Source of the DNA: Candidatus Woesearchaeota archaeon
GTDB taxonomy: Archaea; Nanobdellota; Nanobdellia; Pacearchaeales; GW2011-AR1
Length of the DNA stretch: 64,000 bases
Reading direction: 5' to 3'
NCBI GenBank assembly: GCA_964516745.1
Contig: CAZEYD010000001.1
Span: 303,309 to 367,308, forward strand
Position numbers and translations under genes: made by a program. Below, piece by piece: positions 7,122 through 62,653 of this stretch (positions are counted from its first letter, which is position 1; every line of letters starts with the position of its first letter). Under the pieces are notes generated by a model, which was not told the origin of the DNA, searched no databases, and saw nothing but the letters and a program-made list of their open reading frames with translations.

Positions 7122-7162
7122 AAAAAAACTAACAACTTAGATTTAATAAATCTTTAGAACTG

Positions 7163-7268
7163 TTTCCTTACAAAATAAAAAGTATAGCTTGACAGATAGT
7201 TCTCCTTCCCAATATTCCCTTTCCTACAAAACAAAAAGCGTAGCCCGGTAAATGGTTTTTCTTTCCAA
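7163..7268. repeat. Two tandem ~50-nt imperfect direct repeats in the spacer between the HIT-like gene and ef1b
   Basis: The copies are tttccttacaaaataaaaagtatagcttgacagatagttctccttcccaa and ctttcctacaaaacaaaaagcgtagcccggtaaatggtttttctttccaa. Confidence 0.6.
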
Positions 7269-7292
7269 GGTTTCTTTTCTCAAAAAGAAAGC

Positions 7293-7565
7293 TTAACCAA
7301 GTGCTCTTCTATAATCAATCATCTCGGCGGAAGAAATCTCAGCAATTAAAGATAATGCATTACCAACAACATCAATTTCATTCTCTTCTGGATAAGCAAA
7401 AGAAAAAATTAAAGCTTTTAGGCCAAAAGCAATTGGTTGTTCCTCAACACTAGACATCATACCACCAAGTTCAACAATCTTTGCTTCAACAGCAGTCTTA
7501 ATAGCATCAAAATCACTATCAACACCCTCTGGCATAATTTTATATTGTACAGCACTCATTCCCAT
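7293..7565 (-). CDS. ef1b: Translation elongation factor aEF-1 beta
   Basis: MGMSAVQYKIMPEGVDSDFDAIK...EEQPIAFGLKAL...IDYRRALG is the typical ~90-aa aEF-1beta pattern. The longer ORF-track start at 7607 overlaps the upstream Zn-ribbon gene. Confidence 0.8.
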   Translation of the reverse strand: MGMSAVQYKIMPEGVDSDFDAIKTAVEAKIVELGGMMSSVEEQPIAFGLKALIFSFAYPEENEIDVVGNALSLIAEISSAEMIDYRRALG

Positions 7566-22931: not shown

Positions 22932-23757
22932 GAATAAAAAAGAGTTTTTAAAAAAGGTAGAAATAGAGTTAAAGATATCAAAGAATTCGGAGTACACAGT
23001 TAGAAATTACATTAGAGCTAATGAAGAATTAATAAATTTTGTAGATAAATTTCCAAAAGAGATAAATCCAGATGATATAAAATTATATCTAGCAGAAAAT
23101 TGTTCAGATAGGGCTACAAGTTCGGTTATATTGTTTTTATCAGCGATAAGATATGCTCATCTTGCAGTTTTTCAGAAAGATCCAACACAGATTATAAAGC
23201 GTCCAAAAAAAGAAAAAAGAATCCCAACCGTATTAACAAAAGAAGAGGTAAAACAATTAATAAATATAATAACAAACCAAAAGTCTAAGCTAATTATTTC
23301 TCTTATTTATGCCTGTGGATTAAGAGTCTCAGAAATAGTTACATTAAAAATAAATGACTTAGATTTCATAGAAAATGTTGGACACATAAGGCAGGCAAAG
23401 GGAAAAAAAGATAGAATGGTAAATATCCCCAAATTTCTAACAGATGATTTAAAATATCAAGTAAAAAAACAAAAAGATCAGAAACAAGAATACTTATTTA
23501 CCGGACCAAAAGGAAAAATGACAACAAGGAACATACAAAAAATAGTACAAAAAGCATCAGATAAATTAGATATAAATAAAAGTATTCATTGTCATACTCT
23601 AAGACACTCATTCGCTACACATTTATTAGAAAATAATGTAGATATAAGAAAAATTCAAGAGTTATTAGGACACGCAGATTTATCTACAACACAGATATAC
23701 ACACACATCTCAAGACAAGAGCTAAAAAAAATCCAATCACCACTAGATACATTATAA
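22930..23757 (+). CDS. xerA: Tyrosine recombinase, XerA/XerCD-like
   Basis: The catalytic pattern is present: GLRVSE (R), GKKDR (K), HTLRHSFAT (HxxR), LGHADL (H) and QIYTH (Y). Confidence 0.85.
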   Translation: MNKKEFLKKVEIELKISKNSEYTVRNYIRANEELINFVDKFPKEINPDDIKLYLAENCSDRATSSVILFLSAIRYAHLAVFQKDPTQIIKRPKKEKRIPTVLTKEEVKQLINIITNQKSKLIISLIYACGLRVSEIVTLKINDLDFIENVGHIRQAKGKKDRMVNIPKFLTDDLKYQVKKQKDQKQEYLFTGPKGKMTTRNIQKIVQKASDKLDINKSIHCHTLRHSFATHLLENNVDIRKIQELLGHADLSTTQIYTHISRQELKKIQSPLDTL

Positions 23758-28825: not shown

Positions 28826-28936
28826 AAATATAAAGCCAATTTTAGCTTTATAAAAGTTTGTATAATTAAGAGATATATAAAACAAGTCATCTCCGATAAG
28901 TTTTTAATTTGAAATTAGTTTTCTACCATATAGTCT

Positions 28937-29009
28937 AGTCCCGTAGTCTAGTGGTCAAGGATGTCGGACTCTGAATCCGGCGACCCAGGTTCGAATCCTG
29001 GCGGGGCTA
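28937..29009 (+). tRNA. tRNA-Gln (anticodon CUG)
   Basis: Hand-folded cloverleaf. Acceptor agtcccg/cggggct, anticodon stem tcgga/tccgg with loop ctCTGaa, T arm ccagg-ttcgaat-cctgg, discriminator a. Confidence 0.85.
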
Positions 29010-29145
29010 TAATATTTTTAGAAATAAAGTCACCATTACAATGCCATGATGAGAACCTGAGGTTCGACGAACAGTTTTACTCGAATTTTATATTAATATA
29101 TACTAATAAAATTTCAGAGTGAAATGTGAGCACTGGCGGGGCTAT
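28998..29145 (+). repeat. 13-nt direct repeat of the tRNA-Gln 3' end (ctggcggggctat at 28998-29010 and 29133-29145) bracketing a ~120-nt insert
   Basis: The two copies match exactly. The second copy is followed by an 8-T run. The inner part, 29053-29132, is homologous to 62546-62631. Confidence 0.8.
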
Positions 29146-29188
29146 TTTTTTTCAAAACCTTTATAACTTTCTCTAACCACCTATTTTT

Positions 29189-29710
29189 ATGAAAATTCAA
29201 GCAATATTACTAGGGAAAAAGATTAGTTCAAACTCAAAAGAGGCCTTTGATTTATTATCAAACCAAAGATTTGGAGAAAAGGAAGGAGACAAGGTCTATT
29301 ATATGTTAGAAGAGGCATATTATCTTTTAGAAAAAAGAAAAATAACAATAAAATCATCTTCATATAAAGAACTTAATAAATTAGAGGTGAGCAAAAAATT
29401 CAGTGTGATAGATAGAAATTTTCTAGTTAACTATATGGCATATAAAGATTTGAAGGAAAAAGGATATTTAATAAAAACAGGACTGAAGTTTGGAGGAACA
29501 TTTAGAGTATATAATAAAGAAGCAAGAATCGGACAATCTCATTCAAAATGGATATGTTTTGCAATAGACTCAAAAGAAAAAAATGCATGGCAAGATTTTG
29601 CAGCAAAAAACAGAGTCGCCCATTCAACAAAAAAAACACTATTAATAGCTGTTGTAGATGCAGAGAATGACGTAACATACTATGAGTCTTCTTGGAAGAA
29701 AATTGTTTAA
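29189..29710 (+). CDS. endA: tRNA-splicing endonuclease (short homotetramer-type EndA)
   Basis: GLKFGGTFRVY, SHSKWICFAI and AHSTKKTLLIAVVD match the Y/H/K catalytic context of EndA. The size of 173 aa fits. Confidence 0.8.
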   Translation: MKIQAILLGKKISSNSKEAFDLLSNQRFGEKEGDKVYYMLEEAYYLLEKRKITIKSSSYKELNKLEVSKKFSVIDRNFLVNYMAYKDLKEKGYLIKTGLKFGGTFRVYNKEARIGQSHSKWICFAIDSKEKNAWQDFAAKNRVAHSTKKTLLIAVVDAENDVTYYESSWKKIV

Positions 29711-62342: not shown

Positions 62343-62466
62343 AAAATATTGGAGAAAATTCGATTTATAAATCTTTTGGAGTTACAGTAATATCAAAACA
62401 AAACAGAATAATAAGTAAAAGAGATAAACATTAAATTTTTAAATTGTTTTTAATCTAATCTTGTAT

Positions 62467-62540
62467 GGCTCTGTAGCTCAGCTGGTTAGAGCGCCGCTCT
62501 CATGAGGCGGAGGTCGAGGGTTCGTATCCCTCCAGAGCCA
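62467..62540 (+). tRNA. tRNA with CAU anticodon (elongator Met or Ile2)
   Basis: Hand-folded. Acceptor ggctctg/cagagcc, D arm gctc-agctggtta-gagc, anticodon stem ccgct/ggcgg with loop ctCATga, T arm gaggg-ttcgtat-ccctc, discriminator a. Confidence 0.85.
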
Positions 62541-62653
62541 TTAACGAACCCGAGACAGTCGAGGGCGAACAATTCACTCCGAATGAAAATATTTTCTATA
62601 ATCTTTTTCAATGAGGTGTAAATTGTAAGCAGTATCCCTCCAGAGCCATTAAC
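62524..62653 (+). repeat. 22-nt direct repeat of the tRNA(CAU) 3' end (gtatccctccagagccattaac at 62524-62545 and 62632-62653) bracketing an 86-nt insert
   Basis: The two copies match exactly. The insert 62546-62631 is homologous to 29053-29132. Confidence 0.8.

Follow-up and report, generated by a model that had tools for sequence, protein, structure and literature searches.

In this work, we have analysed a window of 64,000 nt of DNA (positions 303,309 to 367,308 of contig CAZEYD010000001.1, assembly GCA_964516745.1, Candidatus Woesearchaeota archaeon), in which the genes for tRNA-Gln(CUG) and tRNA-Met(CAU) are each followed by a small insert and then by a second copy of their own 3' end. 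Our results show that both inserts belong to one family of short hairpin units, here called type A, which colonises the tRNA genes of a single DPANN genus whose assemblies are labelled Pace-, Woese- or Nanoarchaeota. We consider it probable that type-A units are non-autonomous micro-elements flanked by attachment (att) repeats, which enter tRNA genes by att-type integration and are mobilised in trans. Published descriptions of such units were sought in the literature and none was found, and to our knowledge this family of hairpin micro-insertions at tRNA ends has not been described before.

Anatomy of the type-A units

The genome is archaeal and AT-rich (~31% GC), and comprises 1.008 Mb in 15 contigs. 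The two loci of the window are organised as follows.

28936..29010, + strand: tRNA-Gln(CUG), intact host gene (ARAGORN 28936-29010; Rfam 28937-29009, 63.6 bits)
29011..29052, + strand: AT-rich spacer behind tRNA-Gln (sequence; comparison with locus L081)
29053..29067, + strand: target-derived hairpin of the Gln unit (sequence, fold)
29066..29133, + strand: type-A body of the Gln unit (match to the structured model R2, E 5.3e-11)
29133..29145, + strand: displaced copy 2 of the tRNA-Gln 3' end, CTGGCGGGGCTAT (exact repeat of 28998-29010)
62466..62541, + strand: tRNA-Met(CAU), second intact host gene (ARAGORN 62466-62541; Rfam 62467-62540)
62546..62565, + strand: target-derived hairpin of the Met unit (inverted repeat, fold)
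62566..62631, + strand: type-A body hairpin of the Met unit, CGAACAATTCACTCC...GTAAATTGTAAGCA (nhmmer E 3.8e-14; fold)
62632..62653, + strand: displaced copy 2 of the tRNA-Met 3' end, 22 nt, exact, GTATCCCTCCAGAGCCATTAAC (exact repeat)

An earlier note on this DNA had described a complete tRNA-Gln upstream of an insert, an exact recurrence of its 13-nt 3' end, and homology between this insert and the one behind the second tRNA. All three observations were confirmed. ARAGORN and Rfam agree on a complete tRNA-Gln, and likewise on tRNA-Met; copy 1 of the direct repeat (28998-29010), made of the last 12 nt of the tRNA-Gln gene and one flanking nucleotide, recurs exactly at 29133-29145; and the family hidden Markov model (HMM) matches the Gln and Met inserts (E 6.8e-9 and E 3.8e-14, respectively). 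The 'T-arm-like piece' ggttcga that had been noticed in the insert is a direct copy of the host T-arm, with an inverted copy in front of it. In the Gln unit this inverted copy, X' (GAACCTG, from the T-arm CAGGTTC), one loop base and the direct copy, X (GGTTCGA, from the host T-arm and T-loop), form the target-derived hairpin. The Met unit has the same arrangement, with X' (GAACCCGAGAC, 62546-62556), an A at 62557 and X (GTCGAGGG, 62558-62565), X being identical to tRNA positions 46-53, and copy 1 of its repeat (GTATCCCTCCAGAGCCATTAAC, 62524-62545) runs from T-loop G57 through the tRNA 3' end plus TTAAC.

The Gln body forms a long, imperfect hairpin in which the base carries tandem G.A/A.G, G.U pairs are conserved and the apical loop varies, and the GAGCA/CTGG junction of this unit is common to the units of two relatives, G019 and G064. 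Its spacer of 42 nt is unusually long (~8 nt in the homologous G064 unit) and includes a five-T run that could be a candidate archaeal terminator. Eight Ts in a row stand at 29145-29152, the first of which is the final base of the displaced 13-mer. Across the window, Rfam at gathering thresholds gave the tRNAs alone, and lowering the threshold to E<=10 added only chance-level matches. A C/D-box small RNA in the Gln spacer was considered and rejected because its ATGATGA...CTGA motifs are not kept in the homologous G064 unit.

The same anatomy recurs throughout the family. An intact tRNA gene is followed by a spacer (mostly 2-24 nt), X', 0-2 nt, X, the body and the displaced 3' part of the tRNA, the whole unit measuring ~85-120 bp and carrying no open reading frame (ORF). 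X' is an inverted copy of the 5' half of the host T-arm, usually starting with GAAC (the complement of G53-C56), X is a direct copy of host tRNA positions ~46-53, and the displaced copy extends from T-loop position 57 to the 3' end of the host tRNA plus 0-4 nt; the resulting partial copy resembles the 3' third of the tRNA, in which the body replaces ~3 nt of the T-loop. In 48 non-redundant copies taken from many genomes, X matches the host tRNA 47 times (vs 15% with other tRNAs) and X' 27 times (vs 13% with other tRNAs). The downstream repeat begins at T-loop position 57/58, 17-18 nt before the tRNA end, in 34 of these copies, and the exact repeat has a modal length of 18-20 nt. The break lies slightly further 3' in the Gln lineage, between positions 58 and 62, also in the units of G019 and G064. 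Since the repeat is anchored at 57/58, runs through the tRNA end and has no fixed length, it follows the pattern of an att site and not that of a transposon target duplication. The target duplication supposed in the earlier note is therefore real as a duplicated tRNA end, although it is att-like from position 57/58 and not of fixed length.

The body is a conserved hairpin of ~69 nt. Because RNAalifold on a plain MAFFT alignment gave no structure, a covariance model was built from a hand-derived structure, and this model recovers 95 copies in 91 loci. In its alignment, which is fitted to the model and so leans towards structure, 95.6% of the cells pair vs 85.2% in shuffles, and 12 of the 23 body pairs show compensatory changes (162 cells), as in A-U/C-G (29 and 25 sequences), C-G/A-U (33 and 31) and C-G/U-A (51 and 12). 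None of 500 shuffles reached any of the covariation measures, and in slid controls the pairing dropped to 30-54%. Three G.U pairs are nearly invariant, the base carries the tandem G.A/A.G, there are conserved bulges, and the apical loop varies in length and sequence. Owing to the nearly invariant G.U pairs and the tandem G.A, the fold is specific to the tRNA-sense strand, be it RNA or single-stranded DNA. The body sequences are near-identical between species that share only ~50% identity in their EndA proteins.

Spread among tRNA genes and dispensability of the units

Repeats of tRNA 3' ends behind their own genes far exceed chance in this genome. For 8 of the 37 tRNAs, an exact repeat of at least 11 nt from the last 25 nt of the gene is present within 300 nt downstream of it, and for 15 a repeat of at least 8 nt, vs a repeat of at least 11 nt in 2 of 1272 pairs when the tail of one tRNA was sought behind another tRNA. 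The earlier note had suggested, as its first reading, a family of tiny elements inserting at tRNA 3' ends, and a search for the insert across the genome, with an HMM built from the genome's own copies and with inspection of the 220 nt downstream of every tRNA, supports it. This search gave 11 full type-A units and one partial unit, and without exception they stand immediately behind the 3' end of a same-strand tRNA (Asn, Leu-TAA, Thr-TGT, Gln-CTG, Met, Thr-GGT, Glu-CTC, Ile, Arg-TCG, Ser-AGA and Val-GAC). The copies are diverged from one another, with a mean column identity of 56%.

Other small inserts accompany tRNA genes in this genome (G000). At least three further families, types B, C and D, show the succession of tRNA, inverted T-arm piece, insert and copy of the tRNA 3' end; they are found behind Glu-TTC and Glu-CTC (type B), Arg-TCT and Ser-TGA (type C), and Val-TAC and Thr-CGT (type D), at G000 C2:158-340, C2:19178-19420, C2:32978-33160, C2:83704-83880, C3:97900-98088 and C1:86520-86671. 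In type D, X' and X enclose the cargo, and nothing interrupts the partial T-arm copy. Type E, a 40-nt unit with the same tRNA-insert-repeat layout, lies behind Thr-TGT. At the opposite end of the gene, the 5' end of ~7 of the 37 tRNAs (Gly-TCC, Val-GAC, Thr-TGT, Ser-AGA, Lys-TTT, Gly-GCC and Tyr) is present a second time, as an exact copy of 12-15 nt lying 43-67 nt upstream, and a small hairpin-bearing insert comes between this copy and the gene (outside the window, at G000 C1:194450+, C1:270727-, C1:274074-, C2:143633+, C4:7738-, C4:126796- and C1:46678+). A TATA-like box precedes the distal 5' copy, so the precursor should have a ~60-nt leader with a second 5' acceptor strand.

Beyond this genome, a sequence-only model detected type A, at 1-24 copies per genome, in 32 of the 36 genomes sampled from the genus, and the remaining genera of the order gave nothing beyond marginal matches. 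When 185,579 species genomes were scanned for the exact pattern, 59 loci were returned, every one of them in an assembly bearing the label Pacearchaeota, Woesearchaeota, Nanoarchaeota or just archaeon; among the species genomes scanned, the pattern was found only in DPANN assemblies. Metagenome contigs contributed 42 loci with the type-A pattern, and a scan of a viral contig collection for the body pattern found none. A same-strand tRNA lies within 400 nt upstream of 76 of the 97 matches in loci from relatives (within 80 nt for 61), as the first reading would have it; 8 matches are at locus or contig edges, and 13 are of other kinds, among them arrays whose tRNA lies beyond the contig and inverted copies that lie within partial antisense duplicates of tRNA-Phe, tRNA-Met and tRNA-Tyr. 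The hosts in the fetched loci comprise 23 kinds of tRNA. One type-A copy is found at the 3' end of a protein gene (L050, G016:C15:980-4060, ~1440-1620), whose C-terminus reads GGAGGLLRFVVID up to the stop; this unit keeps the X'/X/body/repeat layout and duplicates imperfectly the last ~30 nt of the gene, stop codon included.

The antisense bodies found in duplicate copies of tRNA-Tyr, tRNA-Phe and an initiator-like tRNA-Met replace the anticodon region or the acceptor end. These duplicates are partial or near-complete (L086 (JAIORZ010000002.1) ~7140-7400; L141, L143, L092 and L167), and ARAGORN calls chimeric tRNAs or tRNAs with giant introns at such loci.

The tRNA-Gln locus shows what happens without the insert. 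Downstream of it in the window lies the following gene.

29189..29710, + strand: endA, tRNA-splicing endonuclease ORF, not part of the element (PF01974 E 1.5e-25, PF02778 E 9.7e-6)

The tRNA-Gln(CUG) gene adjoins endA throughout the genus, in either orientation, and the earlier note had proposed to compare the orthologous tRNA loci of related genomes. This comparison, made between species, revealed empty, remnant-bearing and occupied tRNA-Gln sites. In five genomes with the same orientation (G062, G007, G005, G031 and G004) the site is empty save for the promoter region; the promoter-like box of endA itself (AAAACCTTTATAAC, 29154-29167 in the window) is conserved in relatives. The closest relative (G036, EndA 78% identical) retains an apparent decayed right arm without the repeat, which from its sequence is a probable type-A remnant. 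The same unit with the same junction is present at tRNA-Gln in G019 and G064, in the latter on the far side of an inverted tRNA-Gln, away from endA, and G003 holds tandem type-C units at this place instead. The type-A units are thus shown to be dispensable. A population-level empty allele was also sought for the tRNA-Met site among metagenome contigs, and none was found. Many contigs end inside type-A units, a further sign of insertional DNA. An assembly artefact was rejected, as the same architecture is present in dozens of independent assemblies.

Other features of the loci speak of successive insertion and decay. The first copies of the tRNA 3' end pair with the 5' acceptor strand at 7/7 positions, and displaced copies that have changed at 6/7 (Thr-GGT) or 5/7 (Ser-AGA), with a T-stem mismatch in Arg-TCG. 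Arrays of 2-4 units, each ending in a tRNA 3' copy, are found behind Ile, Ser-GGA, Asn and Arg. In G027, an element of ~33 nt, CCCCGCCCAnTTTCAAATATATTTGGTAGGGTA, is nested at the same right-arm site of two different type-A bodies (L163, G027:C12:62000-63000, and L166, G027:C5:44000-44700; flanks AGTGTG / TAGAGTG), and a sequence related to it, reversed, constitutes a unit type of its own in a tRNA-Ile array (L164).

Within the genus, tRNA-Gln(CUG) has repeatedly been turned round with respect to endA (loci L056-L085), which may reflect local inversions via the repeats. When the two genes are divergent, an insert of 40-45 nt ending in ...GTTAC and a ~14-nt copy of the tRNA 5' end lie between them (L065, L073, L074, L075, L077, L078, L080, L081, L082 and L084). 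This insert belongs to the type E family, which occurs reversed at 3' ends, for example at the tRNA-Thr-TGT of G000 and at a tRNA-His in L053.

Could EndA process the tRNA-Gln transcript? The second reading of the earlier note was that of an intron-like, split or alternative 3'-exon tRNA processed by EndA. On this view EndA would cut, and the upstream portion of the tRNA would be joined by a ligase to the second 3' copy. The start codon of endA does lie where it had been placed, ~45 nt downstream (the ATG is 44 nt after the second copy), the genome does possess intron-bearing tRNAs, and a predicted read-through fold uses the second 3' end. However, the upstream tRNAs are complete and canonical, with acceptor stems paired at 7/7 positions. 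A scan for strict bulge-helix-bulge motifs (3-nt bulge, 4-bp helix, 3-nt bulge), which is only partly sensitive, having recovered some of the known introns used as positive controls, gave 3 matches for Gln vs 1.7 expected from shuffles and 1 for Met vs 0.7, and none of them joins equivalent positions of the two copies. Moreover, the partial copy lacks ~3 nt of the T-loop, so a T-arm would not be rebuilt by splicing the body out. The 10 further copies of the genome lie far from endA, and the tRNA-Gln/endA adjacency holds with or without the insert and in either orientation, which means that endA is syntenic with the tRNA and not with the insert; going by gene order, its position beside the insert is plain synteny, and it has no part in the element. 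With a complete tRNA upstream and a synteny independent of the insert, this second reading is not supported, and we give it almost no credence.

A different possibility is that the body is a functional RNA element, namely a structured 3' trailer co-transcribed with the tRNA, whose spread among tRNAs would be secondary. The body, X' and the second 3' end may give the precursor an alternative cloverleaf, and the element could switch maturation or quality control, terminate transcription or give rise to a small RNA. The strong covariation, the G.U pairs and tandem G.A conserved on the tRNA-sense strand, the near-identity of bodies across deeply diverged species and the orientation of the units, which follows that of the tRNA, agree with this explanation. 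So does the minimum free energy fold predicted for the read-through transcripts, in which the 5' acceptor strand finds its partner in the second copy, and X' in the T-arm, with z-scores of -4.9 and -2.6. By contrast, the empty orthologous sites, the probable decayed remnant and the decay of displaced copies are not what such a function would lead one to expect, and arrays, nested insertions, inverted copies and a copy at a protein gene suit a cis-acting tRNA signal poorly. The left arm also contains a run of four or five Ts (GAATTTTT), and a T-run of this kind should stop the archaeal polymerase before the hairpin is complete. Finally, no Rfam family matches the body. On balance, we regard a functional RNA as rather unlikely.

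Proposed mobilisation of the units

Type-A units travel with larger elements at tRNA-Glu. A contig of 5,031 nt (L104, JAHJSH010000025.1) has an exact terminal repeat of 136 nt and hence a period of 4,895 nt, over which an independent metagenome contig (L196, Ga0180009_10022401) is 100% identical; judged by the terminal repeats in these two assemblies, the 4,895-bp unit is circular or tandem. It codes for a tyrosine integrase (PHROG 1 E 1.4e-14, with a weak match to Pyrococcus XerA) and for a reverse transcriptase (PF00078 E 1.2e-22), and carries a pair of 80-nt repeats with a single A/G difference, one inside an ORF and the other upstream of the reverse transcriptase gene. This repeat arrangement makes it, as a putative assignment, a very small integrase-bearing diversity-generating retroelement targeting tRNA-Glu. 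Its non-coding region contains a long inverted repeat around ACGGCGGGAGCGT, which resembles the 3' end of tRNA-Glu, and there a type-A unit with X'/X of the tRNA-Glu type sits between two gcgggagcgt repeats. In the same assembly, a tRNA-Glu(CTC) with a type-A unit runs into the start of the 4,895-bp element (L111), and a 4.47-kb relative is integrated and flanked by two type-A copies (L107, L205). This shows that the repeats around type-A units are usable by integrases, and such co-travel fits what accretion and cis-mobilisation would predict (PMC5704250). The link with integrase elements is seen at tRNA-Glu, and none was shown for Gln, Met or most other sites.

These findings bear on a third reading of the earlier note, att-site scars of integrated elements. 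In its fuller form, large integrase elements would have lost their interior, leaving attL, attR and a remainder as passive scars with no insertion mechanism of their own. Part of it stands, as the flanking repeats are att-like and one type-A copy travels with an integrase element. In this genome, integrase genes adjoin some tRNAs: a partial T-arm copy of tRNA-Thr(CGT) precedes an integrase, and a recombinase match lies beside a tRNA-Ser call in contig C4. Cis-mobilizable elements and tandem accretion are, moreover, established in bacteria (PMC5704250). Yet the units cannot simply be the debris left at the target of one integrase, and the objection already raised in the note, that one insert family is shared by different tRNAs, is reinforced by the at least 23 kinds of host. 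More than 100 copies behind these tRNAs, and one behind a protein gene, share the ~69-nt body and its boundaries, on which independent deletions would not converge. The two halves of the body nearly always occur paired, 35-45 nt apart, rather than as the ends of long elements, and the body covaries as a hairpin. We therefore hold passive scars to be very unlikely.

Which enzyme could move the units? Four families were surveyed in the genomes of the genus.

Tyrosine recombinase (PF00589): 39 of 41 genomes; six in this genome, one of them at window 23230-23718
Y1 transposase (PF01797): 7 of 41 genomes; none in this genome
Reverse transcriptase (PF00078): 15 of 41 genomes; none in this genome
Cas1 (PF01867): 1 of 41 genomes

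Tyrosine recombinases are the only recombinase family present in nearly all these genomes. Single-strand transposition of the IS200/IS605 type was rejected, as none of the seven genomes with Y1 is copy-rich; retro-mobility was rejected, as the reverse transcriptase is also missing from several genomes with 7-12 copies; and a casposase was rejected on the single occurrence of Cas1.

The tyrosine recombinase gene of the window (23230-23718, + strand, in a frame of 289 aa, PF00589 E 1.1e-44) is Xer-like and lies ~5 kb upstream of tRNA-Gln, and a similar Xer-like gene is found directly upstream of tRNA-Gln in G062. At G000 C1:85100-86762 (- strand), tRNA-Thr(CGT) is followed by a type-D unit, a 16-nt exact T-arm copy and an integrase gene of ~392 aa; the T-arm copy is fused to a foreign acceptor strand (GTTGGGACGT) directly before the integrase gene. 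From its sequence, this locus looks like an integrated element with the T-arm as att core.

We infer for the type-A units a mechanism of att-type recombination, mobilisation in trans and recognition of the folded hairpin. A unit would enter by Campbell-type recombination within the att-like tRNA segment from position 57 to the 3' end, and since it would bring its own copy of this segment, the tRNA gene would be regenerated, as with tRNA-targeting integrative elements. The unit encodes nothing and must therefore be mobilised in trans, for which a tyrosine recombinase would be the leading candidate. What is recognised is most likely the hairpin, which is conserved and strand-specific, possibly in the form of folded single-stranded DNA. 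Once inserted, the unit may be tolerated because RNase Z and RNase P would trim the extra sequence; RNase P RNA is present in the genome (96 bits), so that 5' extensions can be trimmed. The displaced copy would then decay, repeated insertions would generate arrays, and integrase-bearing elements with the same att repeats could pick up type-A units.

Several observations weigh against this proposal. We infer the recombinase, none being linked to the units, and copy number is tracked by no candidate enzyme family, integrase counts included. A sequence-specific integrase is not easily squared with at least 23 tRNA targets, each with its matching X/X', and the association with integrase elements leaves one body family behind 23 tRNAs unaccounted for. 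The inverted copy X' has no explained origin, and the body, instead of simply abutting an att core, takes the place of the ~3 T-loop nucleotides of the partial copy. Neither a free circular form nor an autonomous parent with the same ends was found, viral contigs included, and the divergence of the copies suggests that type A is not evidently active in this genome. The near-identity of bodies across diverged species could equally fit selection for a function, and the conservation of G.U pairs is more usual in RNA than in DNA.

A bolder version of trans mobilisation would be that tRNA T-arms serve as attachment hairpins in single-strand recombination of the integron or CTX kind, the ~69-nt bodies being attC-like, gene-free cassettes moved between tRNA genes by a Xer-related recombinase. 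The X'/X copy of the T-arm would then be a folded mimic of the target duplex. We consider this idea quite unlikely. If true, fragments of tRNA genes would be generated to this day, plausibly as an initial stage on the way to split, permuted and T-loop-intron tRNA genes, and larger elements would have tRNA-anchored platforms on which to accrete.

Significance and comparison with known systems

In this genome, micro-insertions are found at the 3' end of ~15 and at the 5' end of ~7 of the 37 tRNAs, and every one of these insertions at a tRNA end preserves the gene and leaves a spare terminal fragment. They offer a concrete system, at the sequence level, for the old question of how archaeal tRNA genes fragment, gain T-loop inserts and attract mobile DNA. 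Among the integrative or mobilizable DNA so far seen in archaea, type A may be the class of smallest size. There are also practical consequences for the annotation of DPANN genomes, since the units break metagenome assemblies at tRNA loci, yield false tRNA fragments and chimeric tRNA calls, and shift tRNA promoters ~60 nt away from the gene.

The closest parallel to our preferred reading, that of att-flanked micro-elements mobilised in trans, is provided by the tRNA-targeting integrative elements, their gene-less cis-mobilizable derivatives and tandem accretion (Pavlovic 2004, Bellanger 2011, as reviewed in PMC5704250). As in the cis-mobilizable elements, type-A units insert at tRNA 3' ends, the gene is regenerated and the displaced 3' end remains as a direct repeat; there is no recombinase inside, tandem arrays occur, and units at tRNA-Glu appear to be captured by an integrase element with the same repeats (L104, L107). 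They differ from these elements, which were described in bacteria and measure kilobases, in being archaeal (DPANN) and only ~100 bp long, in having short repeats (13-22 nt), in placing one hairpin module behind at least 23 tRNAs, and in carrying copies of the T-arm of their own target.

Type A can also be compared with miniature inverted-repeat transposable elements (MITEs) and with REP/REPIN, Correia and RPE sequences, which are likewise small, non-coding, multi-copy and non-autonomous, and form a hairpin with inverted arms. Unlike MITEs, type A has a flanking repeat of 13-22 nt or more that is anchored at position 57, and no short duplication of fixed length; it is strictly located at tRNA ends, strictly oriented and provided with internal sequences derived from the target, and neither an autonomous relative with the same ends nor a matching transposase was found for it. 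Casposons are driven by Cas1 and integrate at the 3' ends of tRNA genes or at the end of the EF-2 gene, generating duplications of 14-15 bp. Type A is similar in that it targets the 3' ends of tRNA genes and, in one case, of a protein gene, and that a long piece of the gene end is duplicated, but the repeat length is variable, the whole unit lacks terminal inverted repeats and Cas1 is confined to a single genome of the 41.

In integrons, cassettes are recombined at attC sites, and the CTX phage integrates by means of XerCD acting on a folded single-stranded attP. Like attC, the type-A body is an imperfect hairpin of ~70 nt in which the base is conserved, as are unpaired or bulged positions, and the terminal loop varies; as in attC and CTX, the structure is strand-specific, units form arrays, and ubiquitous Xer-like tyrosine recombinases are candidates for its mobilisation. 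Unlike integrons, type A has no GTTRRRY core (R''/R' RYYYAAC...GTTRRRY), its base being GCGAA...GAGTAG, and it has neither an intI/attI platform nor cassette ORFs. Its units stand behind tRNA genes and not beside an integrase gene, so that the anchor is the tRNA gene, whose end each unit duplicates.

Finally, the integration of mobile elements has been proposed to create tRNA fragments in archaea with disrupted tRNA genes (Sugahara et al. 2012, PMC3293823). In contrast to these disrupted genes (non-canonical introns, split and permuted tRNAs), the host gene of a type-A unit is never disrupted, the insert is tiny and lacks a recombinase, and no bulge-helix-bulge was seen in our partly sensitive scan. 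In both cases, however, the fragments adjoin tRNA genes, are tied to mobile DNA and have their break in the T-loop.

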